16,588 nt of DNA, taken from assembly GCA_964244895.1 (NCBI GenBank), contig CAXTKV010000115.1:1-16588 (forward strand), written 5' to 3'. Position numbers and translations under genes: made by a program. The DNA comes from an uncultured Deinococcales bacterium (GTDB lineage: Bacteria > Deinococcota > Deinococci > Deinococcales > JAAFIG01). The notes beneath the pieces were generated by a model. It did not search any database, was not told where the DNA came from, and worked only from the letters and a program-made list of their open reading frames with translations. Shown in pieces: positions 208 through 16,588 of this stretch (the first letter of the stretch is position 1; each line of letters starts with the position of its first letter).

Positions 208-610
208 TGGACACAAGTTCCGATTGCCTCGCATCAACATTGACGGTCCGCGAGATCGGCCACGCGACGTGCTCGAGAACCCGAACGTCTACATCCCGCC
301 TGGTCCGCCGATCGATCGTCAACGGCTCAGAGCGCCGTTTCGTCGCGCGGCAGCCGTGGGGCGAAGCGCTGCGCCATACGCTGCTCTCGATCTCGCTCCG
401 CCCGGCCCACCTGACGGGATAGATCGCGGTGCTGGGCGCGACCATCCGCCCGTGCCCGTTTGTCTGGCAGGTCTCAGAGGAGGCCGAGGTGGAGCAGGAC
501 AACCCGCTGGGGTTCGCGTACGGTTCGACGTGCGAACCGCGCATCGCCTGAATACGTATTCCGGTTCGCACTCGCGCCCGATTGGAGCGAAACTCGATTT
601 TGGAACCCTG

Positions 611-718
611 GTGAGCGACCCGCAACCCCCGCCCGCACGAACCATCGAGATCAGGGCATACCGAAGCTCAGACCGCCCGGTGGTGCGGCGCATCGCGTAC
701 CTGACCGGGCTGTTCGGC
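611..718 (+). pseudogene. N-terminal fragment of a GNAT-family acetyltransferase-like gene
   Basis: The GTG-started segment ...IEIRAYRSSDRPVVRRIAYLTGLFG resembles the beta1/alpha1 start of GNAT proteins (IRxY...DR..V..I). The frame then becomes non-protein-like, Ser/Arg-rich sequence. Confidence 0.4.
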
Positions 719-911
719 TCACGCTCGACCGACGCACGGAGCTGTCCAAAAGGCCGGAACTCACGATCAAGCTCGATCTCGCGCGCGTCCAACAGACAGG
801 CCAGATCAGCCAGAACTTCCTCTTTTGTGAGCCTGTCAAAAACCAGACGTTCTGGGGGGTTGTCGCCCCTGAAACGCCGGCTTCGGCGGCGATTCCAAGC
901 GACCGATCCCT

Positions 912-1409
912 CTAGGACTTCGCGTTCTTCAAACGTTTCGACTCGCCAGCACCCTGGAGGCCGACCGCTTTCTTTACGAGCGCGCCGATCTTTGCTTCGT
1001 CGGTGGCAGTCAACTCCTTCAGCGCAAAAGCGACCGGCCAGAGGCTGCCTTCGTCGAGCTTCGCTGTGTCGTTGAAACCGAGTGTCGCGTACCTCGTGTT
1101 GAACTTCTGCGCGCTCTGGAAGAAGCAGACGATCTTGCCATCCTTGCCATCCCCGGCATACGCGGGCATCCCGTACCAGGTTTTCGGCGAGAGGGCTGGC
1201 GCGTTGGCCTTGATGATCTCGTGGATCCGCTTGGCCATGGTGCGATCCGGTTCTTGCATCTCGGCGATCTTCGCGAGGACGTCGCTTTCGCCCTCCGCCC
1301 TGTCCTTGTCCGCGCGCGCTTCGGCCTTCAGCTCTTTGGCGCGCTGCCTCATCGCGGCCCGTTCCTCGTCCGTGAACCCGTCGGCGGCCCGACCCGTGCT
1401 GCCCTTCAT
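912..1409 (-). CDS. DUF1801 (YdhG-like) domain protein
   Basis: Family-typical [60 protein letters not shown]. The start overlaps the upstream VOC stop (ATGA). Confidence 0.9.
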
Positions 1410-1840
1410 TGCGGGCCTCCGCTCAACCGTTTCGAAGCTCCTTGGACGCGAACCAGGTTGCCCGCAGGATCGCGGAAGGCGCAGTCGCGAACGCCGTAAG
1501 GCTGCTCGGTCGGCTCCTGGACGACCTCGGCACCGCTGGCCTGGATTCGATCGAAGACGCCCTCAAGGTCGGTGGCCGCAAGCAGGAGGGTGGCGTAGGT
1601 ACCCTTGGCCATCATCTCGGCGATGGTGCGGCGCTCGTCGTCGGTGAGCCCTGGGGTGGCGACCGGCGGGTAAAGCACGATGGACGTGCCAGGCTGGTCG
1701 GTGGAACCGAGGGTGATCCAGCGCATCCCGTTGTACCCCACATCGTTGCGAACCTCGAAGCCGAGGGTGTCGCGGTAGAAGGCCAGGGAGGCGTCTGCAT
1801 CGTTGTGCGGCAGGAAACTCGCGTGAATGGTGATGTTCAT
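1406..1840 (-). CDS. VOC family (glyoxalase/bleomycin resistance-like) protein
   Basis: [34 protein letters not shown]...[26 protein letters not shown]. The true start is taken as ATG 1840 (TAGAAT lies 7 nt upstream), not 2038. Confidence 0.92.
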
Positions 1841-1845
1841 GGCGG

Positions 1846-2295
<450 letters not shown>

Positions 2296-2384
2296 CGGCA
2301 AGAGTCTACTTCCTCGCCCCCTGCGAGATCGGGCGCTCGTGCGCCTCGGAGCGCAGGCTGGTTTTTGGGTCAGCCAGAACCTGT

Positions 2385-2687
2385 GCGCTCGAGGGACGCT
2401 GGGGACCTCCGTTCGCCATGATCACCGAGGGCGATTTGTGCGTCTGGCCGAGCGGGCCGGGAACGTCGGCGGCCAAACCGATGCCCGACGGTCGCCAGCC
2501 CTCGCCCAGCGGTTGGAATCGGTTGGTGATCGAGGTCGGCGATCTCGAGATTGTGGTCGCGCGCATGAAGCAGGCTGGCGCGCCATGTCGAAACGAGAAT
2601 GTGAGCGAACCGGACGGTGAGCAGATTCTGGACGATGATCCCAGCGGAAACCCGATTGAGCTGCTCGAGGCTTCGCGGGACGCGTGA
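2385..2687 (+). pseudogene. N-terminally truncated, decayed VOC family gene
   Basis: The frame reads LEGRWGPPFAMITEGDLCVWPSGPGTSAAKPMPDGRQPSPSGWNRLVIEVGDL...QILDDDPSGNPIEL. VOC similarity extends upstream of the ATG at 2418, but the first beta-strand/helix (VRY.V.DV..A..FY) is absent and the usual GPGG reads EPDG. Confidence 0.75.
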
Positions 2688-2732
2688 TCCGAAGTCGCTG
2701 CCGTCGGCGAGGGTTCAGGGCTTCGGTCAGCC

Positions 2733-3761
2733 TCAGCGCGAGCCGGGGGGTAATGCCTGATACGCCCCGAGCGGGCCGTCGGGCACGAGGCCGTCGCGCT
2801 GGTACATCTGGTACGCCCTGACGATCAGGCTCCCACCCTCCAGCGCCTTGCCTTGGCGCTGGTAGACCAGCCCCAGCACGTAGGTCGCCAGCGGATTCTC
2901 CGGTGCCAGACTGACGGCTCGCTCGAGGAAATTGGCCGAGGCCGCTCGCCCCTCAACCGTCTTGGGGCCGTTGATGAACCCGCCCGGCACGCGCTCTCCG
3001 CGGTAGTAAAAGTATTGCGAGCGGATGTAGTTCCACGGCAGCAGTTGCACCGCCGAGGGCGAAACCGTTTCACCGTTCAGCGCGCGGTAACCGCCGATCG
3101 TGTTGTCCGGGTTGTAACGGGCCTCCACGAAGCGGTACTGGCCGTTCACCAGCGTGAACAGGCCGGGGTGCGGGTAGAACGGCGTCGGCTCGGACGCGTC
3201 CACCAGAACGTCGCGCCCGTCCGCGAGGCGAAGCACCGCGACCATGTGGCCGAGGTTGCTGGCCTGACCCGCCGGGTTCTTCCAGACCATTACGATGCCC
3301 GCATCGAGGCCCGCGCTCTGCAGCATGCCCGAGATCAGGGTCGATTGCAGCAAGCACTGGCGCTCGCCTTTGGAGACGGTGTAGGCGAACTCGTAACCGC
3401 GCTCCAGGCTGAAGTTGGGGATGGTGGCCTTGATCAGCTTGTGGAGCCACGCGCCGGTGTCCAACTCGAGCTGGCTGCGGGCGGAACCCTGGAGCGCGGC
3501 CAGTTCAGTCGCGCGCTGTTGCAGCGCTTCGCGCAAGGAGAGTTGGGGAAAGCCCGGTAATTTGGCGGCTGGGGTGGCGGCGTAGCGCGCCTCGAACCAG
3601 GCGTAAAAGTCCGGGAGGCTCTTGTCACCGACCACTGCGTAGGACTCGCTGATCAGGGAGCTCATGGCCTGTGAACCGTAGGCGAACTGCGCCGGTTGAT
3701 TCTGGGCGAGCGACCCGGAGAGCATCAGGCTCAACAAGGCGATCAGGATTCGAGGTTTCAT
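2733..3761 (-). CDS. Secreted protein with transglutaminase-like Cys-His-Asp core and C-terminal TPR
   Basis: Signal peptide MKPRILIALLSLMLSGSLA|Q. The only Cys is in ERQCLL, with His at +36 (NLGHMV) and Asp 16 residues further (VLVDAS). TPR-like FLERAVSLAPENPLATYVLGLVYQRQGK. Confidence 0.7.
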   Translation of the reverse strand: MKPRILIALLSLMLSGSLAQNQPAQFAYGSQAMSSLISESYAVVGDKSLPDFYAWFEARYAATPAAKLPGFPQLSLREALQQRATELAALQGSARSQLELDTGAWLHKLIKATIPNFSLERGYEFAYTVSKGERQCLLQSTLISGMLQSAGLDAGIVMVWKNPAGQASNLGHMVAVLRLADGRDVLVDASEPTPFYPHPGLFTLVNGQYRFVEARYNPDNTIGGYRALNGETVSPSAVQLLPWNYIRSQYFYYRGERVPGGFINGPKTVEGRAASANFLERAVSLAPENPLATYVLGLVYQRQGKALEGGSLIVRAYQMYQRDGLVPDGPLGAYQALPPGSR

Positions 3762-3972
3762 GGCCGCCAGACTACATGAAGCGCGCTCGACGCGATGGAA
3801 CCCGACGGAGGCCCGGAGTGCCTGAAAATGCGGCGATTTTCTGACCGAAAAATCGGTGCAAGCCCGTCGACGGGCTCATCCCTGCGGACGGGGCGCCGCC
3901 GTTTGGCGATGATGCCGACGGTGCGAATTCCGGATCGCGTACGCGCGAGGCTGAAGCCCTCGCCGTTCCGGC

Positions 3973-4917
3973 TCAATGCAGACGCGCCTTGAAAAAGGCC
4001 GTCGCCCTCGAGATCAGCAACGCGTCCGAGGAACCGTGAAACGTGTGCCCGGCCTTCGGGTACGTGAAACACTCGACCACCTTGCCGAGGGCCTTGAGTT
4101 TTCGGCACAGCTCGAGCGACCAGGCGAGCGGCACTTGATCGTCGCGCTCGCCGTGGTGGACGCTGACGGCGGCCCGAATCCGCTCGAGGAACCCGATCGG
4201 CGAGATTTGCGCGAGTTGCGAGGGGGTCGCCTTGAGTTCCTCGAGTCCGCGCGTCCCACCCGACAGGACGCTCGAGATGCGCAGGAAGTTGCGCCGTTCG
4301 TCACCGCCCATCGCGCCGTACAGCAAGGCCGCCCGGATGCCGGGATCGACGGTCATCACGCGCAGGGCGATCCCGCCACCCATGCTGTGCCCGAAGAGTC
4401 CGATCGACCTCGGGTCGGCGCTCGCGAGCGCACCGGGCTCGCCGCCCCAACGGCGCAGGCTGGCGATCAGGTTCAGCACGTCCACCGCGTACCCGACGCG
4501 GAACAGCGGGTCGGCTCGGCCCTGCGACGGGCGGTGCCCGCGCAGGTTGGGGTGCACCACCACGAAGCCCGCCCGCGCCAGCGCGTCGGCGTAGCGGGTG
4601 GTGTAGGCCAGGGTTCGGTAGCTGGCCGGGTCGAGGTAGCCGTGAATCACGATCACCACCGGGTGCGCTCCGCGAGCGGTGGGGATGTCGATGAAGCCGT
4701 ACTGGCGCGCACCGTCGCTCTGCCAGCGAAGGAGCGAGCGGGTGAAGCCCGCCTGACGCTCGAGGACGCGCTCGAGCACGAGCGGGCCGCCGTCGTAGGT
4801 GCGAGCCGAGAGGGACGCGATTCCGAGCGGATCTGGGGGCTGGAGGGATTGCGCCTGGATGCTCAAGCATCCGAGGGCGCCGATCGAGACGATCAGCCCG
4901 CGGCGAAAGTTGTTCAC
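3973..4917 (-). CDS. Secreted alpha/beta hydrolase (S9 peptidase/esterase-like)
   Basis: Signal peptide, VIVIHGY oxyanion region, GHSMGG nucleophile elbow, HGERDDQVP (Asp) and AGHTF (His). Confidence 0.9.
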   Translation of the reverse strand: MNNFRRGLIVSIGALGCLSIQAQSLQPPDPLGIASLSARTYDGGPLVLERVLERQAGFTRSLLRWQSDGARQYGFIDIPTARGAHPVVIVIHGYLDPASYRTLAYTTRYADALARAGFVVVHPNLRGHRPSQGRADPLFRVGYAVDVLNLIASLRRWGGEPGALASADPRSIGLFGHSMGGGIALRVMTVDPGIRAALLYGAMGGDERRNFLRISSVLSGGTRGLEELKATPSQLAQISPIGFLERIRAAVSVHHGERDDQVPLAWSLELCRKLKALGKVVECFTYPKAGHTFHGSSDALLISRATAFFKARLH

Positions 4918-4957
4918 ACCTCAGATCGAACCATACCCTCCGACCGGGCGGAATACC

Positions 4958-4980
4958 CAGATACACAGATACACAGATAC
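4958..4980. repeat. 8-bp tandem repeat (CAGATACA)x~3 upstream of the hydrolase
   Basis: CAGATACA CAGATACA CAGATAC(G), preceded by a degenerate GGAATACC unit. Confidence 0.8.
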
Positions 4981-5138
4981 GCGAACGGCAGGGGCTCGAG
5001 CGCCGGCACCGGCGTCACCCGACCGGGCCGAGGATCGACCCGCGACGCCGCGGACTTTAAATTCAGGATCACGGGTTCGCGGTTTCTGCGTCGCGTTCGC
5101 TCCCGGTACCGATGCTGGAGCGACCCGAGGCGTTTCGT

Positions 5139-5828
5139 CTACGGGCCGCGCTTGACCGCGTACCGCTTGGTGGGTCGCCCCACCCCACCGTGGGCCACCT
5201 CGAGCGAGACGAAGCCGATGCGGGCCAGGTGTTCGAGGTAACGCCAGGCGGTCACGCGGTTCAGGCCGACCCGCGCCCCGACCTCCTCGGCGCTCAGGGG
5301 TTCGTTGGCCTCGAGCAGCGTTTCCCTGACCCGCTCGAGGGTGGCCGGATCGACGCCTTTGGGCAAGTGCGCGTCCGAGGCGTGCCCGAGCAACCGATCC
5401 AGCCGCGCCTGCGTCAGGTTGCGCCCCTCGCGAATGGCCTCGCGCTCGCGGTAACGCCCGAGCGCTTGGCGCAACCGCGGGCGCTCGAAGGGCTTGATCA
5501 GATAGTCCAGGACTCCGTCTCGCAGGGCGATCTGCACCGAATCCACGTCGCTGGCGGCGGTGATCATGATCACCTCGAAAGACAGGCGTTCGGCGCGCAG
5601 CCGGTGAACCAGCTCCAGACCGCTGCCGTCGGGCAGGTAGACGTCCACCAGTAGCAGATCGGGCGCGAGCGACCGGGCGAGCGCCAGGCCTTCGCGAACG
5701 CTCTCGGCCTGTCCAACCACGAAGAAATCTTTTTCGGCCTCGACCATCTCGCGGTTGACGCGCGCCACCCAGAGGTCGTCCTCGATGAGGATCGCGCGGG
5801 CGGGTCGCGTCGAACTTCGGGCGTTCAT
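5139..5828 (-). CDS. CitB/DcuR/DctR-family response regulator
   Basis: Receiver domain IEDD...DLLLVDVYLPDGSG...ITAA...DYLIKPF, family-typical LPKG linker, and HTH LSAEEVG..VGLNRVTAWRYLEHL...GVGRP..Y. Confidence 0.93.
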   Translation of the reverse strand: MNARSSTRPARAILIEDDLWVARVNREMVEAEKDFFVVGQAESVREGLALARSLAPDLLLVDVYLPDGSGLELVHRLRAERLSFEVIMITAASDVDSVQIALRDGVLDYLIKPFERPRLRQALGRYREREAIREGRNLTQARLDRLLGHASDAHLPKGVDPATLERVRETLLEANEPLSAEEVGARVGLNRVTAWRYLEHLARIGFVSLEVAHGGVGRPTKRYAVKRGP

Positions 5829-7516
5829 CGCGGGTCGACGTCCGCGAGGGCGCTGGACGGAAGGCTCACCTGGAAGACCGTCAGACCGTCGCGCTCGAGG
5901 TGAACGACCGTCCCGCCGCGCGATTCGACCCGCTGCCGGACGAGGAAAAGCCCCAGGCCCCGCGACGCACCGCGCGTCGAGAAGCCGCGCTCGAAGATGC
6001 GCCCCAGCGCGGCGGGCCGCACGCCTGGGCCGCCGTCGCAGACCTCGATCTGCGCGCCGTCCGGGTCTTCACCGAGGGTCAACGTGACCGCCGAGGCTGG
6101 ACGCTCGAGCGCGGCATCGAAGGCGTTCTCCAACAGGTTACCGACCACCGGCACGAGCACGTCGGTCGCCAGCCGATCCCAGGCGCTCGAAAGGCCGGAG
6201 CCGGGTTCCAGCGAGAACGGAATCCCGAGTTCTCGGGCGCGCTCGAGCTTGCCGATCACCAGCGCGGCCAGTTTGGGCACTTCGATATCGCTGATCGCCT
6301 CGCGCACGGCGTCCTTCTGCGCGGATTCGTGCTGAATCAGCGCCAGCGCATCGAGCGGGCGCCCGAGCTGGATCAACCCGGCGATGGTGTGCAGGCGGTT
6401 CATGAACTCGTGCGTCTGGGCGCGAAGCAAGTCGGCGTACTCGCGCGTCTGGGTCAGTTCCTCGGCGATGCGCGTGACCTCCGCGCGGTCGCGAAAGGTC
6501 ACGACGCGCCGATCCTCCGAGGCCCGCAGGACGCGCACCAGCACGGGCATCCCCGAGGCCGAGAGCGCCTGGTTGATCGCGTTGGAGTCGCCCTCGAGTA
6601 ACCCGCTGGCGGCGAGCTCCGGCCAGGTCTCGCGGATCGGTGCGGGCAGGATGGTCTGCGGCTCGAGGCGCAACATCTCGGCGGCGCGAGGGTTCAGGAT
6701 CAAGATCTTTCCGCCCGCGTCCAGCACGATCACGCCCTCCTGGAGGGCGCTCAGCACGGCGCGGTGCTGCAAGACGAGCGCGGCGATCTCGTCCGGCTCG
6801 AGTTCGAGCAACTCGCGCTTGAAGCGCCTCGAGATCACGATGCTGCTCGAGAGCGCCAAGCCGAGCGCCAGCCCGAACCACGGCCAGAGCGTTCGGCTGA
6901 CGCGCGCGACGGTCGTCTGCACGGTCGGCAACAGGTAACCGGTCGAGACGAGCCCGATCACGCGCCCGTTCGCATCGCGGATCGGCACCTTGCCGCGCAC
7001 GGACAACCCCAGCCCGCCCAGCGCGACCGTGATGATCTCGCGCCCGGCCAGGGGCTCGAGCGTGTCCGAGGCGGGTTCGCTGCCCTCCATCATCGAACGC
7101 CCGATCTTTTCGGGCTGCGGGTGCGAAAGCCGGATGCCGTGGACATCGCCGACCACGATGAAATCCGCGCCGACCCGCCGGCGAATCCGGTTGGCGAGCG
7201 GATCGATGGTGCTCGAAGGCGCAGCTGACGTCGCGATCGCGCCCACCACCTCCGGCATGGCGGCGACGATCCTCGAGATGGCGAGCGCGCGCTCCCCGAA
7301 TTCCTCGCGGGTCGAGCGCTCGAGTACGAGCGTCAACGTCGCGGCCAGCACCAGCGTCAGCAGCGTGACCACGCCCGCCTGCCACAGGAACAACCTCGCC
7401 TGAATCCCGAGCGACCACCCGTTGCCGCGCGGCGGCACGACATCGCGCGTGCTGGCTGGCCACCCCGCGCGAGACCTCGAGCGTCCTTTGGTGTTGTCGC
7501 GTACCCGGACGCTCAC
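5825..7516 (-). CDS. CitA/DcuS/DctS-family sensor histidine kinase
   Basis: Two TM helices flank an sCache-like domain (DFIVVGD..GIRLSHP..EKIG, SVRGKVPI), followed by PAS (LQEGVIVLD), H-box RAQTHEFMNRLHTIAGL, N-box GNLLENAFDA and G boxes DGGPG/GFST/GLGL. GGAGG precedes the GTG start; the stop overlaps the regulator start. Confidence 0.93.
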   Translation of the reverse strand: MSVRVRDNTKGRSRSRAGWPASTRDVVPPRGNGWSLGIQARLFLWQAGVVTLLTLVLAATLTLVLERSTREEFGERALAISRIVAAMPEVVGAIATSAAPSSTIDPLANRIRRRVGADFIVVGDVHGIRLSHPQPEKIGRSMMEGSEPASDTLEPLAGREIITVALGGLGLSVRGKVPIRDANGRVIGLVSTGYLLPTVQTTVARVSRTLWPWFGLALGLALSSSIVISRRFKRELLELEPDEIAALVLQHRAVLSALQEGVIVLDAGGKILILNPRAAEMLRLEPQTILPAPIRETWPELAASGLLEGDSNAINQALSASGMPVLVRVLRASEDRRVVTFRDRAEVTRIAEELTQTREYADLLRAQTHEFMNRLHTIAGLIQLGRPLDALALIQHESAQKDAVREAISDIEVPKLAALVIGKLERARELGIPFSLEPGSGLSSAWDRLATDVLVPVVGNLLENAFDAALERPASAVTLTLGEDPDGAQIEVCDGGPGVRPAALGRIFERGFSTRGASRGLGLFLVRQRVESRGGTVVHLERDGLTVFQVSLPSSALADVDPR

Positions 7517-7658
7517 GTCAAGCCTCCAGCCCGTCCCCCAAGAAGTGTGATGCCCTCAGTCTACGCGCGAGCCCGAGCCAAATCCTGAACCCGCCCGTGG
7601 GCGTGCCGAGCGTCCCGTCTCCAGCATTCAGCTCGAGAATTCGTTCAGGACAGTCTTT

Positions 7659-8513
7659 TTACTCGCTCAAGACCGCCGGACGCCATTTGATCAGCCGATT
7701 CTCGAGCGCCGTGATCAACCCTTCCGCCGTCAACGCGACCGTCGCCAGGATCAGCATCGAGGCGAACACGCCCGCCGCGTTGAAACTGCCCTGAGCGGTC
7801 GCGATCATCAGCCCGATGCCGTGCCGCGAACCCAGGAACTCGCCCACCACCGCACCGACCAGCGCGAAGCTGAAGCTGATGTGCAAGCTGGCCAGAATCC
7901 AGCTCATGGCCGAGGGGATGATCACGGAGGTCGTGACCTGGCGCGGGCTCGCGCCCAGGATGCGGGCATTCGCGATCAGGTTCCGATCCGCCTCGCGCAC
8001 GCCCTGGAACGCGTTGCCGAAGACCACGAAAAAGACCATCACGACCGCCAGCGCGACCTTCGATTGCATCCCGAGCCCCAGCGTGATCACGAAGATCGAG
8101 CCCAGCACCACGCGCGGGATCGAGTTGGCGATGCGGATGTAGATGCTGAACACATCCGCCAAGAGCTTGTTGCGCCCCAGCGCGATGCCCGCGATGATGC
8201 CCAGCACCGCGCCGATCAGGAAGCCCAGCACGGTCTCCTCGAGCGTCACCAGAATTTCGAGCCACAAGGGTCCCTGGGATGTGCCATCGCGCGCCCAGAC
8301 CCAGACCTGCTCGAGCACCTTTGAAGGCATGGCGAAGAAGAACGGGTCGATCACCTTGAGCCGCGCCAAGCCTTCCCAGCCGCCCAGCGTCACGACCAGC
8401 ACGGCCACGCGCAGCGCGTTCACCAACTGCGAACGACGCCTGATCTGCTCGCGCGCCTGCACCTCGGCGGGGCTCGGCGCGGCGATCTGCGCGGCAGCGT
8501 TCGGCGCGGTCAC
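7659..8513 (-). CDS. NitT/TauT (SsuC/TauC-like) ABC transporter permease
   Basis: Multiple TM segments, NSIPRVVL, EAA-like loop NARILGAS..Q and GAVVGEFLGS..GIG. Confidence 0.93.
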   Translation of the reverse strand: MTAPNAAAQIAAPSPAEVQAREQIRRRSQLVNALRVAVLVVTLGGWEGLARLKVIDPFFFAMPSKVLEQVWVWARDGTSQGPLWLEILVTLEETVLGFLIGAVLGIIAGIALGRNKLLADVFSIYIRIANSIPRVVLGSIFVITLGLGMQSKVALAVVMVFFVVFGNAFQGVREADRNLIANARILGASPRQVTTSVIIPSAMSWILASLHISFSFALVGAVVGEFLGSRHGIGLMIATAQGSFNAAGVFASMLILATVALTAEGLITALENRLIKWRPAVLSE

Positions 8514-9349
8514 GCCGTCCCCCGCGCGCTGGAAAGCCGCTTGGATGTCTCGTAGGCGACCAGGACTTCCTCGCGCAGGTCGTTCCAGATGGTCTTGGAC
8601 AGCTCGACGAAGTGCGGGTCGTAACGAATTTCACTCGTGACCCTCGGGCGCGGCAGGTCGATGTCGTAGACGGCCTTGACCGTCGCCGGGCCGGAGGTCA
8701 GCACGAAGACGCGATCCGAGAGCGCGATCGCCTCCTCGAGATCGTGCGTCACGAAGACCACCGACGCGCCGCTCGAGGCCCACAGGTTCAGCAACTCGTC
8801 CTGCATCAGCACGCGCGTCTGCACGTCGAGCGCGCTGAAGGGCTCGTCCATCAGCATGATCTCGGGCTCGTTGATGAAGGTCTGCGCCAGCGCCACGCGC
8901 TTGCGCATTCCGCCGGAAAGCTGGTGCGGATAATGCCCCTCGAAACCCGCCAGCCCGACGCGCCCCACCCAATCCCGCGCCTTGGCCAACGCCTCGCGCC
9001 TCGGCGTACCGCGAAAAAGGGGCCCGGAGGCGACGTTCTCGAGCACGCTCTTCCACGGGAAGACCGCGTCCTGCTGGAACACGAAGCCGATGCGCGGGTC
9101 GATCTTCGTGACGGGCTGACCCATGACGCGCACCTCGCCATCGTTGGCCCGAGCCAACCCGGTAATCAGCCCGAGCGTGGTGGATTTGCCGCAGCCCGTC
9201 GGGCCGACCACCGCGCAGAACTCGCCCTTCTTGACCGTCATCGAGAAATCGCGCAGCGCCGTCAGCATCGACCCGTCCGGCGTGACGAAGCGCCGACTGA
9301 CGTGGCTGAGTTCGATGGCCGTATTCGGATCGGAAATCGTTTGTGTCAC
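8510..9349 (-). CDS. NitT/TauT (SsuB/TauB-like) ABC transporter ATP-binding protein
   Basis: Walker A GPTGCGKST, signature LSGGM, Walker B MLMDEPFSALD, H-loop VTHD, and C-terminal DLPRPR. Confidence 0.95.
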   Translation of the reverse strand: MTQTISDPNTAIELSHVSRRFVTPDGSMLTALRDFSMTVKKGEFCAVVGPTGCGKSTTLGLITGLARANDGEVRVMGQPVTKIDPRIGFVFQQDAVFPWKSVLENVASGPLFRGTPRREALAKARDWVGRVGLAGFEGHYPHQLSGGMRKRVALAQTFINEPEIMLMDEPFSALDVQTRVLMQDELLNLWASSGASVVFVTHDLEEAIALSDRVFVLTSGPATVKAVYDIDLPRPRVTSEIRYDPHFVELSKTIWNDLREEVLVAYETSKRLSSARGTA

Positions 9350-9392
9350 CCTTCACCCCTCTCCTGATTGCGTCCGGCTCGGGCCTCATATC

Positions 9393-9447
9393 CGAGAACA
9401 CCGTCCAGCACGATGTCGACTGAATCGCGTCCTGGACGGTGTTCTCG
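9393..9447. other. Intercistronic stem-loop between the substrate-binding protein and ATPase genes
   Basis: CGAGAACACCGTCCAG (9393-9408) and CTGGACGGTGTTCTCG (9432-9447) form a perfect 16-bp stem with no adjacent U-tract. Confidence 0.75.
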
Positions 9448-9465
9448 AGCCGTACGCTCGGGCCG

Positions 9466-10479
9466 TTACTTGACGTTCTTGACGAACTCGGTGGTGAAGG
9501 TCTTGGAAAGGTCGATGGTGGCGTTCTTGACGGTCGGCTTGAAGGTCGAAAGCACCTTCAGCACGGTCGGCGGGCCGCTTTCGGGCATCACACCGTCGAT
9601 CGTGAACATCAACTTGCCCGCCGCCAGCGCGTTGATGTAGAGTTCCGGATCACCGACCAGGTAATCGTTGGGCATCCTGGAGGCGATCGTCTTGGCATCG
9701 TTCTTGACGATGAAGCGCAGCGTCTTGACAAACGCATTGGCGAGCTTCTGCACCTCGAGCTTGTGCGAATTCACGTAATCTGTCGGCATGTACAGGCAGG
9801 CCGCCGGGTACAGCCCGCCGAGCGCCTTCTGGGTTTTTTCCGGGGTGCGCATGTCCACCAACACCTTCGCATCGCCCGTCTTGAGCATCCTCGAGATCGT
9901 GGGTTCGGTGGTCATGCCGACGTCGATCTGGCCCTGCTGCATGGCGGCGATGAAGGTGTTGCCCGCGCCGACCGGCAAGCGCGAAAATTGATCGACCCCG
10001 ACGCCGTTGATCACGCCCAGGTACTGCGTCAAAAAGTCGGTCGACGATCCGATGCCGGTCACGCCCGCCGTGCGGCCCTTCCAATCTTTGGGCGACTTGA
10101 TCTCGGCGGCTTTCTTGCTGGAGACGAGTTCGACCTCGCCGGGTGCGCGGCTGAATTGCACGACCGATTCCGTGCTCTTGCCGATGGCTTGAAGGTCGAC
10201 GTTGTGATCGTAGAAGCCGACCACGCCATCCACCTTGCCCGCCAGCATCTCGGTTTCGGCAGACACCCCTGCGGGTTCGTCCAGCAAATCGACCTCGAGC
10301 CCCTCGGCTTTGAAGTACCCAAGTTGCTCGGCCAGCTTGGCGGGAAGGTAGATCTGCTTGCTCAGACCGCCGACCATCAGCGTGACCTTCGATGTTTGCG
10401 CCCCGGCTCCATTGATCGCGACCAGACCAAGCGGCAAGAGCACGACCCCGACGGCGACGATTTTCGAGACTGGCTTCAC
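9466..10479 (-). CDS. NitT/TauT (NMT1/SsuA-like) ABC transporter substrate-binding protein
   Basis: GTG start at 10479 with a GGAGGAG SD. Signal peptide ending AGA|Q. MVGGLSKQIYLPAKLAEQLGYFKAEGL and GVTGIGSSTDFL. Confidence 0.92.
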   Translation of the reverse strand: MKPVSKIVAVGVVLLPLGLVAINGAGAQTSKVTLMVGGLSKQIYLPAKLAEQLGYFKAEGLEVDLLDEPAGVSAETEMLAGKVDGVVGFYDHNVDLQAIGKSTESVVQFSRAPGEVELVSSKKAAEIKSPKDWKGRTAGVTGIGSSTDFLTQYLGVINGVGVDQFSRLPVGAGNTFIAAMQQGQIDVGMTTEPTISRMLKTGDAKVLVDMRTPEKTQKALGGLYPAACLYMPTDYVNSHKLEVQKLANAFVKTLRFIVKNDAKTIASRMPNDYLVGDPELYINALAAGKLMFTIDGVMPESGPPTVLKVLSTFKPTVKNATIDLSKTFTTEFVKNVK

Positions 10480-12404: not shown

Positions 12405-12719
12405 TTACCGACGCGCAGCCTGGCATTCGAAGGATGCGCATGAATGGTGAGCAATCGAGGACGCAGGTGCTACCTCCGACCATTCATCATTTGCCTCCCC
12501 TCGCCGGTGGCCGTATTCGGTGACTTGGTCGAATGACCAGGTGCGCCAGCGAGGTAATCGCACGCTATTCAGGAAAAATGACGGACTCATCCCTCGAGCG
12601 CGATCAAACCCAAATTGCGAAAGTGGGAGAATTCGTGCGTCGACGAGGCTTTCGAGTGTTGACTTACTCAGACCTGCTGGAGAAGTAGTCGAACCTGCCT
12701 GTGGTATCGGATTCGACAT
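12405..12719 (-). CDS. Hypothetical small protein directly downstream of XRE-1
   Basis: ATG lies 4 nt after the XRE-1 stop; 104-aa ORF in a visibly less GC-rich stretch with no motif. Confidence 0.3.
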   Translation of the reverse strand: MSNPIPQAGSTTSPAGLSKSTLESLVDARILPLSQFGFDRARGMSPSFFLNSVRLPRWRTWSFDQVTEYGHRRGEANDEWSEVAPASSIAHHSCASFECQAARR

Positions 12720-12723
12720 GGTT

Positions 12724-13002
12724 CTATTTCGTCCGCCGTTGGTTTGGCTCCGACAAGGTGACCAGCGCTCTCAACTCTACCGGTTCGTAAACCAGTTCGA
12801 AGGCGTAGACCTCGAGCGCGATCGCGATCTTGTTGATGACCTCTAGCCCTGGGTTCCTGCGTCGACCGCTCTCAAGGTTCTGAAGGTACTTTTCGCCCAG
12901 GCCCGCGCGCGTGGCGAGTTGCTCTTGCGTATAGCCTCGCGCCTCGCGCAGCAACCGAATCCGGTTGCGGAGCGTGTCGGCGTCGATGGCGTACTGGGGC
13001 AT
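12724..13002 (-). CDS. XRE/Cro-C1-type HTH transcriptional regulator (XRE-1, 92 aa)
   Basis: RIRLLREARGYTQEQLATRAGLGEKYLQNLESGRRRNPGLEVINKIAIALEV. The start at 13002 aligns ungapped with the XRE-2 Met. Confidence 0.93.
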   Translation of the reverse strand: MPQYAIDADTLRNRIRLLREARGYTQEQLATRAGLGEKYLQNLESGRRRNPGLEVINKIAIALEVYAFELVYEPVELRALVTLSEPNQRRTK

Positions 13003-13035
13003 GCCCTCGCACCGTACGGATTCGACCCCAGTCAA

Positions 13036-13057
13036 TACACCTCCGTATGGAGGTGTA
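13036..13057. promoter_or_regulatory. Palindromic operator 1 overlapping a plus-strand -10 (TAGAAT, 13056-13061)
   Basis: TACACCTCC-GTAT-GGAGGTGTA, between the divergent XRE-1 and lipoprotein genes. Confidence 0.8.
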
Positions 13058-13128
13058 GAATCTCGAGCGTACCCAACGACCCCGCCCGACAAGGCGGCGA
13101 TCGACCCAACCCGCACGCGGAGGATCGG

Positions 13129-14301
13129 ATGCCCGAGCAGACCCCAACCGTCGCACCCACCAACTACACATCGCTCCCACCCCACACCGTCACGGTTTCC
13201 CTGCGCATGGCCCAGGATCCCAGACCCGCCCTAAGGCGTCCTTACCCCCGCCGCGCGTGGTTCCCGCTCGCCCTCACGCTCGCTCTGCTCCCCGCCTGCG
13301 CCCCCCAACTTGCCGCTGGTAAATCCCGCACCGCGCTCGCCGTCGAACCCCTCCAACGCCTCCTGATCATGATGCGCAAAGGTGACATCGACGCCGTCAA
13401 CACCTTCCCAGTCGCCAACACGACCGCCGGAACCGACACCGACACCACTTCTATCCGTGCCTACGACCCCTTCCAGACGCGCGACCTCAAAGACCTGCTC
13501 GCGCGCTCCCCAAAGCTCAAAGAGGCTCTCGCTCGGATCGCCATCGATCCCGATCCGCCGTTCGTCGAGGAAGGCCAGGCGTTCCTCTCAGGCCAATCAT
13601 TCGAGGGGCAGCCGATCTACTTCTACTCGGGCCGCGTGATTTTCAAACTCGCTCTGCCGGACGCGCCAGCCGAGAAGTTCACCTTGACCTACTGGATCGA
13701 TGGGCCGAGGGTGACGTACGCCGACTCCGGGTTGAGCGGCCCTCGGGCGATGCTCGCCAACTACCGCCGCTACATCGAGTCGTATCCCGAGCGCGCGAAA
13801 CTGGCCGCGCCACCGGCTCAGGGCAACCCCAGCGCATCCGGGACGTCTAGCGCACCCTCGAGCACTCCAAACCTCCCAACAGCCTCCTCGGCTATCCCGC
13901 TGGCGGCGAACTCCGCAGTGCAACCGACGTTGCCCAGTTCGGCGGTGGCTTCCGCCTGGTGGCCGACCATCAACGCAGGTCAGACGTGGGACGTGACGGT
14001 GGGCCGCTACGCTTGGCGGGTGACGCTCACCCAGCGGGTCGAGCAGGCTGGAGCCTCGAGCATTGTCGGTTCGGCAGTGGGAACCACGGGCGGCGCGCCC
14101 GGTGCGATCGCGGCGTTCGCAATCGTGCCATCCTCGAGCGCGGTGATCCTGGCCTTGCAGAACGACGCGTTTAGCCTCAGGTGCGAGTTCAGCGCGGCGC
14201 AATCGGGCGGCACGAAGCTGGGCGGAATGGCGACGCTGCGCGCGGCACGCTCAAGGATAGACGAGGCCTTCGGGCCGTGCAGCGCTGCGCTCGAACGATG
14301 A
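13129..14301 (+). CDS. Putative two-domain lipoprotein of unknown function
   Basis: ATG 13129 with GGAGG SD (alternative ATG 13207). RRAWFPLALTLALLPA|C lipobox-like signal, Ser/Pro/Ala linker, and a beta-rich C-terminal domain with two Cys. Confidence 0.7.
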   Translation: MPEQTPTVAPTNYTSLPPHTVTVSLRMAQDPRPALRRPYPRRAWFPLALTLALLPACAPQLAAGKSRTALAVEPLQRLLIMMRKGDIDAVNTFPVANTTAGTDTDTTSIRAYDPFQTRDLKDLLARSPKLKEALARIAIDPDPPFVEEGQAFLSGQSFEGQPIYFYSGRVIFKLALPDAPAEKFTLTYWIDGPRVTYADSGLSGPRAMLANYRRYIESYPERAKLAAPPAQGNPSASGTSSAPSSTPNLPTASSAIPLAANSAVQPTLPSSAVASAWWPTINAGQTWDVTVGRYAWRVTLTQRVEQAGASSIVGSAVGTTGGAPGAIAAFAIVPSSSAVILALQNDAFSLRCEFSAAQSGGTKLGGMATLRAARSRIDEAFGPCSAALER

Positions 14302-14357
14302 ACCGCTGCACTCCGCCTCGCGCTCGCAAAAACGTGACGAGCATAGTCGGCAGGACC

Positions 14358-14615
14358 TCACGCCTCCAACTCGAGCATTTTTTTGAGTACATCAGGCTCG
14401 TAAAGGAGTCCGTATACGTGTACTTCGAGGGCGAGTGCGAGTCGGTTCAGTACATCCAGCCCTGGGTTTGCGCGACGGCCCAGTTCGAGATCCTGGATGT
14501 ACTTCTCGTGCAATCCGGCGCGCTCAGCCAGCTGTTCCTGGGTCAAGCTTCGGGCTTGGCGCAAGGCTCGAATGCGGCGCTGTAGTGTCCGGGGATCCAC
14601 CGTAAGGGCCGTCAT
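14358..14615 (-). CDS. XRE/Cro-C1-type HTH transcriptional regulator (XRE-2, 85 aa)
   Basis: RIRALRQARSLTQEQLAERAGLHEKYIQDLELGRRANPGLDVLNRLALALEV; paralog of XRE-1. Confidence 0.93.
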   Translation of the reverse strand: MTALTVDPRTLQRRIRALRQARSLTQEQLAERAGLHEKYIQDLELGRRANPGLDVLNRLALALEVHVYGLLYEPDVLKKMLELEA

Positions 14616-14650
14616 GCGTGAGGCCACGCTATGGAGTTCAACTACGAACG

Positions 14651-14672
14651 AACACCGTCAACTGACGGTGTA
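14651..14672. promoter_or_regulatory. Palindromic operator 2 overlapping a plus-strand -10 (TAAACT, 14671-14676)
   Basis: A-ACACCGTCA-AC-TGACGGTGT-A, between the divergent XRE-2 and the 589-aa gene. Confidence 0.8.
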
Positions 14673-14790
14673 AACTGCCTTTGCTTTTTGTACATATCAG
14701 CCCGTGTGCTTCGAACACCTACCCCGCCGGACTTCTCCCACTGCGACGTGCTGGCCGTATCGAACGATGCGGTTCCGCCTGGAGGAAACA

Positions 14791-16560
14791 ATGCCGAAAC
14801 GACGAATATTCCGATCCGTGACGCCCGGACAGTACGCGCAACTGAAACGGCTCATCACTCCTGCGCTCGTGAGCGGCAACGGCGTCGCGATCGAACCCGA
14901 TCCTGAACCGCTCGTACCGTTCGCCAACACTTGCGGTCCGCGTGTTTACGTCGCGCGTCGGCAGCGAGGATGGAGCGCGACCCGGCTCGCAAGCGAGGTC
15001 AACGTCCTGCTCGAGTCTTTAAGCGCAGAGCCCCCCGAGATCATTCCGGGCGAGTTCATGGTCGGCGACCTCCAGCGCGAGCGCGCGGCGTTTTTCGGCA
15101 CCAAGGGGCGGCTATGGAACGGATTCTTGGCGACAGACAAGCACCGGGCTGCCGTCGCACCATCGACGCGACCCCGACGGCTGAGCGCGCGCTCGGTCAT
15201 CGGCATCGAACAGCGCGAACTCTGCGTGAGCGACACGCTGCTGGACCCCCTGGCGACCGTCCTCGGCGTCCCGAAACACTGGCTACAAGACGAGCGCGCC
15301 GTCTGGCCACCCGAGACCGGAAGTGCGAACCCGGACGAGCTAACCGCTGCACTTGATCTCCTCGAGGGAGGCGATGGGCTCGAGTCGGGCGAGTTCGCGT
15401 GGCTCCGGCCCGTTCTGGCGGAACCCGCCGCACTCAGGGTGATCGAATCGGCCTGCGGCGCGCTCGCGCGCTACGGGGATCCAACGATGAAAATCATGAA
15501 GACTGAAATGCTTCAGGTCGACCGGCTCGAGCGCACCTGGCGACGGATTTTCGGGGGATTGCCCGAGGCTCCTTGGTTTACGGACACGTGGGAGGTGCAG
15601 CTGCAAGACCTCGACCCTCTGGACGACGCGTTCGAGCAGCATCGAATGTGGCTGCGCGACGCAATCCGTAACGACATCAGATTCCGCGAGACACTCGCCG
15701 AGCGTCGGGCGTACGCCAACGGCGTGAACGACGCCCGACGCGAGACGCTGGTCAAGTTGAGCGCCGTTCAGCGCGCGGTTCATGAAACGTTCGGCTCAAA
15801 AGATGAGTTCGAGGCTCCGCTCGAGGTGCTGCGGCTGCGCGCTGAACTCGAACGCGCGCAATCCGAAATTGCGACGATGCACCACCAAAATATATCCGCA
15901 GTCCGAGCGCTCGAGGAGGTGAACAAAACCAACAAACGGTTGGAAAAAAATCTGGCGGACTTTCAAAGTGCGGTGCGACCTGCGACGCCCATCCCAACAC
16001 GATCAGAACTGGTTCGATTTGCGGAGCAGTACGAAGTGCTCGAGCCGAGGGGGCCGATCCCCGCCTCGAGTGAGGAGCTGACCACAGCCTTGACCCAATT
16101 CCTGATCGAACTGCGCGCTTTCCTCGACGAGCAGCTGAGCGAGCGAGATGCGCTGGCCCACGAGCGCGAACAGCGCACGCTGATCCGCATCGAGACGCAG
16201 ATGCGCAAGATGGTCGAGCAGTTCGAGCAGATCCGGGCGCGCGTTCGAGCGCAGAACGCGCCAGCGCCTCAAGGCAACCCCAGCCCTTCGCGGCCAGCAG
16301 CGGGCAGCGGATCGGCGCGCACCGCACCCCCGAAGTACACGACCGCCGAAGCACGCGAGATCGAGCGCGTATCGGGCAGCATCGTCGCGTCGCTGCGCGC
16401 AAACACAAACCGCGAAATGACAAAATCGGTGATCGCCTCCCGGCACACCGACGAGGACAAGCGTTACCTGGCTGCGGCGTACCAGCACCTCGAGAGCAAC
16501 CGTGTCATCAGCATCGTCGGCAACACGGTAAAGTGGGCGTGTCAAGCGAAGTGTGGCTAA
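14791..16560 (+). CDS. Uncharacterised 589-aa protein: interrupted XRE-like HTH, coiled coils, C-terminal winged-helix-like domain
   Basis: GGAGG SD 5 nt before ATG 14791. GPRVYVARRQRGWSATRLASEV...LSARSVIGIEQR...LDPLATVLGVPKHWL, heptad-rich LRLRAELERAQSEI...LEKNL, and C-terminal MTKSVIASR...LAAAYQHLESNRVISIVGNTVKW. Confidence 0.75.
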   Translation: MPKRRIFRSVTPGQYAQLKRLITPALVSGNGVAIEPDPEPLVPFANTCGPRVYVARRQRGWSATRLASEVNVLLESLSAEPPEIIPGEFMVGDLQRERAAFFGTKGRLWNGFLATDKHRAAVAPSTRPRRLSARSVIGIEQRELCVSDTLLDPLATVLGVPKHWLQDERAVWPPETGSANPDELTAALDLLEGGDGLESGEFAWLRPVLAEPAALRVIESACGALARYGDPTMKIMKTEMLQVDRLERTWRRIFGGLPEAPWFTDTWEVQLQDLDPLDDAFEQHRMWLRDAIRNDIRFRETLAERRAYANGVNDARRETLVKLSAVQRAVHETFGSKDEFEAPLEVLRLRAELERAQSEIATMHHQNISAVRALEEVNKTNKRLEKNLADFQSAVRPATPIPTRSELVRFAEQYEVLEPRGPIPASSEELTTALTQFLIELRAFLDEQLSERDALAHEREQRTLIRIETQMRKMVEQFEQIRARVRAQNAPAPQGNPSPSRPAAGSGSARTAPPKYTTAEAREIERVSGSIVASLRANTNREMTKSVIASRHTDEDKRYLAAAYQHLESNRVISIVGNTVKWACQAKCG

Positions 16561-16588
16561 CGGCTTTCACACCGGCATCCGATCCTCG

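Follow-up and report, generated by a model that had tools for sequence, protein, structure and literature searches.

Putative palindromic operators beside a rare group of XRE regulators in a Deinococcales genome: a predicted switch acting on two divergent promoters

What is the role of the two palindromes that stand beside paralogous XRE-family regulator genes at the right end of a contig from an uncultured Deinococcales bacterium? The contig (C115), 16,588 bases long, was analysed whole and is referred to here as the window; it belongs to a genome, designated G000, of 5.12 Mb, 62.7 % GC and 328 contigs. An earlier note, made from the letters of the window alone, had described the palindromes as a shared operator overlapping the promoters of the divergent genes. 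The reading that we favour, with a probability of about three in four, is that they are operators, and that each adjacent XRE protein, a predicted homodimer, would bind its own site and in doing so switch both its own gene and the divergent one. The regulator genes and putative sites are as follows.

12724 to 13002, minus strand: XRE1, 92 aa, HTH_3 regulator (P0001); the start matches the N-termini of 22 aligned subfamily members
13036 to 13057: putative operator 1, TACACCTCC-GTAT-GGAGGTGTA; core ACACC-N10-GGTGT at 13037-13056, dyad between 13046 and 13047
14358 to 14615, minus strand: XRE2, 85 aa, HTH_3 regulator (P0002)
14651 to 14672: putative operator 2, A-ACACCGTCA-AC-TGACGGTGT-A; core at 14652-14671, dyad between 14661 and 14662

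Both palindromes were read directly in the sequence, as TACACC-TCCGTATGGA-GGTGTA (13036-13057) and AACACC-GTCAACTGAC-GGTGTA (14651-14672). Coordinates and offsets in the earlier note were correct throughout, including the distances of 34 bp (XRE1) and 36 bp (XRE2) from the minus-strand ATGs at 13002 and 14615. Each palindrome lies within a divergent intergenic region, with the XRE gene to its left and a plus-strand gene to its right. The inner 10 bp are self-complementary, as had been observed, at four of five base pairs in each site, and the palindrome arms measure 9 bp in both (TACACCTCC/GGAGGTGTA and ACACCGTCA/TGACGGTGT). The pattern ACACC-N10-GGTGT matched the window exactly twice against an expected mean of 0.03, and two or more matches were obtained in none of 200 dinucleotide shuffles.

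A genome-wide scan for the same pattern, suggested in the earlier note, gave an answer that was positive for placement and not for number: the count was not raised (five sites in 5.12 Mb; one occurrence of the reversed control pattern), and three of the five sites lay upstream of XRE paralogs. The third of these, ACACCTCATTAAAGAGGTGT, is found 34 nt upstream of the ATG of XRE3, a paralog located by tblastn in the same genome (C191:3976-4227; 49-53 % identical). Each of the three specific operators is unique, with no near copy elsewhere in the genome. Candidates for additional regulon sites were rejected: C150:6031 and C303:418 were attributed to chance, having only one and two of five inner pairs complementary, respectively, and no adjoining XRE gene; C93:1111 is a hairpin that resembles a terminator, with a T-run after it; and C300:2963, judged by eye, appears to fall inside a coding sequence.

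Palindromes were also present at the equivalent upstream place in two genomes that carry orthologs of these regulators, as ACCGGAT-AA-ATCCGGT in G060 and ACCGTATATATACGGT in G010. The earlier note had made its interpretation depend on conservation before orthologous XRE genes, and both orthologs indeed carry ACC-N10-GGT there. Within 100 nt upstream of 81 XRE loci the pattern occurred at five, which were exactly the five subfamily members (start at -51 to -54), and at none of the 76 more distant metagenome XRE loci. This upstream comparison covers five subfamily loci out of about 21 known members. A scan of genome contigs for further orthologs returned only the G060 and G010 loci; a metagenome scan returned 80 loci, all of more distant XRE proteins with 38-66 % identity over part of the protein, which served as controls; and viral contigs held no close relative, the best match being 46 % over residues 15-71.

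Comparison of the ten half-sites, read from the outside towards the dyad, allowed the conserved and variable parts to be separated.

XRE1: ACACCTCCAT, ACACCTCCGT
XRE2: ACACCGTCAG, ACACCGTCAA
XRE3: ACACCTCATT, ACACCTCTTT
G060: ATACCGGATA, GAACCGGATT
G010: ACACCGTATA, GAACCGTATA

Positions 3-5 (ACC) are invariant in all ten, and positions 6-9 vary between proteins whilst being mirrored within each site. The common readout is therefore not ACACC, as first proposed: the conserved part is ACC/GGT, in the two orthologs one or both sides read GAACC or ATACC, and the additional outer AC is a trait of the three G000 sites. We infer that each monomer reads ACC together with the three or four bases that follow, which would set the half-site centres roughly one helical turn apart, the spacing expected of a Cro-type dimer. 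The idea that the symmetric inner bases confer paralog specificity fits these data, given that the inner bases are private and symmetric and each operator is unique in the genome. The operators of XRE1 and XRE3 share ACACCTC...GAGGTGT, and because the XRE1 operator includes the complete 14-letter XRE3 pattern, cross-talk between these two is possible. Other metagenome XRE clades displayed palindromes of their own at fixed upstream places, namely AGGGACTATAGTCCCT at about -50 in five loci (L052, L062, L089, L092 and L094), ACACGCATATGCGTGT at -50 in one locus (L067), and TGCCAAT-N2-ATTGGCA at -34 in eight loci of longer XRE proteins (L025, L031, L035, L039, L040, L046, L048 and L072).

The proteins encoded beside the palindromes belong to a rare XRE subfamily. 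XRE1 and XRE2 are 57 % identical and match HTH_3 (Pfam PF01381) at 52.4 bits (E 5e-14) and 50.2 bits (E 3e-13), against a curated cut-off of 23. A Deinococcota search with a five-sequence profile found the subfamily at five places in 3 of 364 genomes (E at most 3e-36), three in G000 and one each in G060 and G010; the next best place scored 8e-18, and a 130-aa protein found in most genomes of genus g7 scored about 1e-13. Among 5.8 billion proteins, 21 scored E at most 3e-19 and the next 1e-13. Members are 75-92 aa in length. In a tree of 22 members, XRE2 paired with P0009 (support 95/92) and XRE3 with P0006 (99/98), and XRE1 grouped, with less resolution, with P0016, P0018 and P0020. By this tree the three G000 paralogs are old lineages rather than recent duplicates.

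An AlphaFold model of the XRE protein (predicted local distance difference test score, pLDDT, 85) showed a Cro/C1-type five-helix bundle with an additional C-terminal helix, in which helix 2 spans residues 26-33 and the recognition helix, helix 3, residues 37-45. K38 and Q41 are invariant in the subfamily alignment, and residues 36, 37, 39, 40 and 42 are clade-specific. The nearest chains by Foldseek were NHTF, C.AhdI (40 % identity over 63 residues), SinR, DdrO, CapH and C.Esp1396I. A homodimer is supported by modelling: the score was 0.75 compared with 0.04 for the best of three controls, contacts agreed to at least 93 % across three runs, and the partner pLDDT was at least 85. Of 30 solved homodimers, 20 reach the mark applied, compared with 1 of 23 solved single chains, figures that are only roughly valid here because our own alignment was used; since dimers of related XRE proteins have already been solved, the pass may also reflect likeness to them. 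The modelled interface comprises the invariant N50-P51 loop, helix 4, the N-terminal arm and the C-terminal helix.

If the palindromes are operators, their position relative to promoters should indicate what a bound protein would do. The hexamers TAGAAT and TAAACT, described earlier as pointing to the divergent open reading frames (ORFs) at 13129-14301 and 14791-16560, are present, and a second hexamer, which the earlier note had missed, lies on the XRE side of each site.

13056 to 13061, plus strand: TAGAAT, predicted -10 element of divergent gene 1; starts 9 nt past the dyad, 5/6 match to TATAAT
14671 to 14676, plus strand: TAAACT, predicted -10 element of divergent gene 2; starts 9 nt past the dyad, 4/6 match to TATAAT
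13011 to 13016, minus strand: TACGGT, predicted -10 element of XRE1; 30 nt from the dyad, 8 nt before the ATG
14626 to 14631, minus strand: TAGCGT, predicted -10 element of XRE2; 30 nt from the dyad, 10 nt before the ATG

On the divergent side, a TAnnnT hexamer abuts or overlaps the distal end of the palindrome in all five subfamily loci, starting 9, 9, 10, 7 and 10 nt from the dyad (TAGAAT, TAAACT, TATGCT, TATTGT and TATAAT). As regards hexamer position, the proposed closeness of palindrome and target -10 box, by contact or overlap, thus recurs at every locus; the identity of these hexamers as promoters is a prediction. The XRE-side hexamer is better fixed in position than the divergent-side one: exactly one TAnnnT occurs between palindrome and ATG in each of the five loci (TACGGT, TAGCGT, TAGGGT, TAACGT and TAGCCT), starting 30 nt from the dyad in four and 31 nt in one, with a distance to the ATG that varies from 6 to 10 nt. 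No Shine-Dalgarno sequence was found at the usual distance before the XRE genes. Across 13,129 candidate starts from 2,969 ORFs of the genome, TAnnnT peaked at -12 and -13 with 379 and 188 occurrences over a background of about 35 (10x and 5x), and this accumulation 12-13 nt before candidate starts makes it probable that a large share of G000 mRNAs are leaderless. In Deinococcus deserti, 60 % of mRNAs are described as leaderless (PMC4007540). XRE1 and XRE2 transcripts would not be strictly leaderless, as the spacing between hexamer and ATG exceeds the genome mode, and would instead have leaders of 2-4 nt. If the TAnnnT hexamers are -10 elements, the dyad falls near -42 relative to the XRE promoter and near -21 relative to the divergent one.

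In the XRE3 (L125 3914-3941) and G010 (L014 2938-2963) loci, the TGT of the distal operator end stands just before the divergent TAnnnT, giving TGTTATGCT and TGTTATAAT. This arrangement would make an extended -10 element (TGn), which could explain the missing -35. Both window sites are shifted by one base and are without it.

These positions lead to a mechanism that can be stated simply. An XRE dimer would sit on its own palindrome, each monomer reading a half-site composed of the invariant ACC and the next three to four paralog-specific bases. With the dyad near -21 of the divergent promoter, the bound protein would block RNA polymerase and the neighbouring gene would be repressed. With the dyad near -42 of its own weak, near-leaderless promoter, the same dimer would stimulate its own transcription at low level. 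The three paralogs of G000 would then constitute three parallel switches. There is precedent in RNA-guided transposons: VpxR, from a CRISPR-associated transposon of Vibrio parahaemolyticus, is described as activating its own promoter and repressing the divergent VPA1392 (PMC12150760), and Xre proteins of I-F3 elements as binding upstream of xre, where a low dose activates and a high dose represses (10.1101/2020.07.02.184150).

Several observations weigh against this interpretation. The comparison involves just five loci, three of them from one genome, and such kin are not independent. The genome count of five ACACC-N10-GGTGT sites is close to what base composition predicts (about six, by our arithmetic from 62.7 % GC). 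A strict sigma-70 scan of 12600-14900 returned 0 promoter-like sites where 0.3 were expected, no -35 candidate at 16-18 nt spacing matched TTGACA better than 3/6, and the XRE-side hexamers match TATAAT in only 3/6 positions. The window XRE hexamers end 8 and 10 nt before the ATG, and the modal spacing in the genome is 6-7 nt. Finally, self-activation as opposed to self-repression is judged from position alone.

The last of these points opens the way to a reading in which the operator is the same but XRE merely represses both promoters, combining negative autoregulation with repression of the neighbour and no self-activation. Negative autoregulation is common in the XRE family, and the XRE-proximal end of the palindrome overlaps the -35 place, 16-18 nt upstream of the XRE-side hexamer. 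I-F3 Xre proteins, too, are described as repressing their own promoter at high dose (10.1101/2020.07.02.184150). A repressor acting alone, however, needs no such exact spacing, whereas a dyad 30-31 nt from the hexamer in five of five loci, coupled with poor -35 sequences, is the geometry of a class II activator and of lambda cI at OR2. It is this fixed spacing and the poor -35 that lead us to prefer self-activation, and we consider repression of both promoters unlikely, though it deserves to be taken seriously.

A more distant alternative is that the palindrome is bound by another protein or acts as a DNA or RNA structure, as the cruciform or hairpin suggested earlier would. Folded as single strands, the palindromes reached -9.3, -8.2 and -7.0 kcal/mol (z-scores -4 to -6.6), and compensated changes in the arms would also fit a structural element. 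Against this, the palindrome follows the XRE gene while the neighbours differ (unrelated targets in the window, a family of about 200 aa in C191 and G010), it would lie outside both predicted transcripts, and no Rfam family was matched, the sole hit (E 0.48) lying elsewhere. Arms of 8-9 bp are short for cruciform extrusion, and with single-strand folds of only -7 to -9.3 kcal/mol a structural role is not needed to account for the sites; we regard it as very improbable. Chance resemblance of two intergenic regions has in its favour that the genome-wide count is no higher than composition predicts, yet the sites share an offset before XRE genes in three of five cases, so the excess is one of position rather than number. 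No shuffle of the window gave two sites, the offset is the same in three of three paralogs and two of two orthologs, and the motif is absent from all 76 other XRE loci, which leaves coincidence with a negligible share. Operators bound by the adjacent XRE proteins thus remain our preferred account, one to which the comparison between loci lends good support.

The divergent genes that such operators would control are as follows.

13129 to 14301, plus strand: divergent gene 1, 390 aa; GGAGGA at 13119-13124, lipoprotein-like LLPAC motif, GC at third codon positions (GC3) 0.78
14791 to 16560, plus strand: divergent gene 2, 589 aa as read; GGAGGA at 14781-14786

Neither product matched any family in Pfam, NCBIfam or PADLOC. 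Residues ~48-180 of the 589-aa protein (14930-15330) resemble by eye a helix-turn-helix of XRE type that a long insertion interrupts, with extended coiled-coil-like stretches after it; Pfam gave no support for a helix-turn-helix in this protein, with a best E of 0.15 to unrelated families. Its true 3' end is uncertain because the last eight codons lie within a repeat that starts at 16535 and in which the contig stops. The 54 bases of this repeat (16535-16588) are identical to at least four other contig ends (C5, C187, C215 and C297) and nearly so to C161 and C225, and appear to be the edge of a multi-copy repeat or an insertion sequence. The XRE modules occupy the right end of the window, and its left 12.3 kb carries ordinary genes encoding an ABC transporter, a histidine kinase and response regulator, hydrolases and a ComEA-like protein. 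No marked GC shift was apparent across the XRE region, and a search for an insertion boundary with the ComEA-like neighbour in 19 genomes of the family gave only domain-level matches.

Two of the five subfamily loci, one of them in part, lie in a Tn7-like context. In G010 (L014/L126, G010:C14; L014 3001-6198) the XRE gene is directly upstream of genes for TniQ, Cas5d, Csd1/Cas8c and Cas7 and divergent from two paralogs of a 190-aa partner; a NUDIX gene follows the cas genes, the same contig has a TniB-like gene some 40 kb upstream, and no Cas3 was found among the ORFs checked. The locus has the appearance of a type I-C CRISPR-associated transposon arm that carries its own Xre. The contig of XRE3 (C191; L125, 9.9 kb) contains TniB (362-1264), a 464-aa TniQ (1216-2610) and the 190-aa divergent partner; over 362-9860 it also carries two small minus-strand orphans and a 1,267-aa protein without a family match (4626-8429), and it ends in a fragment of a tyrosine recombinase (integrase). 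In the protein atlas, the 190-aa partner family comprised only clusters labelled 'hypothetical protein'. A further homolog of this partner family of about 200 aa is present in G000 (C235 2929-3486), with no XRE gene and no ACC-N10-GGT palindrome upstream.

G000 has a tniQ-cas5-cas8c-cas7 arm of its own on C161, which holds no near copy of the three G000 operators, and the repeat found at the window end cuts the 5' end of tniQ there. Joining the window end to this arm was considered and rejected: at least four other contig ends enter the same repeat, and the flanks show no duplicated bases. XRE1 and XRE2 are flanked by ordinary chromosomal genes on the left and the contig-end repeat on the right. 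A search of 35 kb of G010 for a second operator found one operator copy and one match with four mismatches (locus position 34537). Type I-C CRISPR-associated transposons have been described from metagenomes (10.1101/2021.08.16.456562). In the portions of the literature on this class that were available we found no account of its regulation, with Rybarski et al. mentioning xre in general terms (10.1101/2021.08.16.456562), and nothing relevant was found on such elements in Deinococcus.

A broader reading would join these observations. The subfamily, with about 21 members in 5.8 billion proteins, might serve type I-C CRISPR-associated transposons and related Tn7-like ones of Deinococcales as a dedicated switch with one operator and two promoters, which would be the third time that RNA-guided transposons had independently recruited a controller-like Xre; the tandem modules of the window would be cargo-control cassettes, and ACC plus four private bases would define mutually orthogonal repressor-operator pairs within one genome. 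We put this forward only tentatively, as a proposal that would more probably fail than stand. Should the transposon link be true, the operator would provide a handle on how such elements turn on after transfer. The results in any case supply a testable regulatory map for a rare, undescribed XRE subfamily, consisting of operator, half-site rule and promoter geometry on both sides, and G000, with its three regulator-operator pairs that have diverged, offers a small natural experiment on the ways in which paralogous repressors escape cross-talk or retain it.

How does the proposed switch compare with known systems? Among solved structures the best match was DdrO (6rnz, 6jq1), from the same phylum, with E 6e-13 over the helix-turn-helix domain only. 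DdrO is longer, at about 130 aa, and IrrE cleaves its C-terminal dimerisation domain, whereas the proteins described here have 83-92 aa (75-92 aa across the subfamily) and lack that domain; the RDRM operator of DdrO (PMC5552922) is also a different motif. The arrangement is not that of a HigA/HipB-like antitoxin, as the neighbours, of 390 and 589 aa, are large and divergent, and no toxin family was matched by either. A parallel in phages is cI of lambda and 434 at OR2, where one dimer site serves the back-to-back promoters PRM and PR, as is proposed here. Lambda cI activates its own weak promoter from about -42 and represses the core of the opposite promoter, and 434 operators, like the sites described above, combine conserved outer bases with variable inner ones. 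Lambda cI differs in having three cooperative sites and a C-terminal oligomerisation and cleavage domain, where the present system would have a single site and no such domain, and no phage genes were found nearby.

Controller (C) proteins of restriction-modification systems, such as C.AhdI (1y7y) and C.Esp1396I (3clc), are of similar size and fold, with C.AhdI 40 % identical over 63 residues at a root-mean-square deviation of 0.8. They bind as dimers to palindromes upstream of their own gene, the distal site favouring activation, and the predicted layout here is similar. C proteins have paired C-boxes, of the GACT/AGTC type and so unlike ACC-N10-GGT, and in the present loci there is one palindrome per locus within 100-110 nt upstream. 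No restriction or methylase family was matched beside the window XRE genes (Pfam, NCBIfam and PADLOC).

The Xre proteins of CRISPR-associated transposons (VpxR and those of I-F3 elements) share with the present subfamily a small XRE protein on Tn7-like elements, a box upstream of its own gene and a divergent region, and the xre slot of I-F3 elements, directly upstream of tniQ-cas, equals the place of the G010 gene. For XRE1 and XRE2 the likeness comes from their relatives, since a transposon location is indicated for those loci rather than for the window copies. The transposon types differ, being I-C in G010 and TniB-TniQ in C191 as opposed to I-F3. The operator here is ACC-N10-GGT, and the distinction from I-F3 Xre (RtaC, RtbC) is one of description rather than sequence comparison; a further box near the guide or tniQ, as in I-F3 elements, was not found in the 35 kb of G010 or on C161. 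In sum, the mechanism as such is ordinary and the gene switch belongs to a familiar type; what is new in detail is the subfamily, together with its probable ACC-N10-GGT operator and the Tn7-like link.

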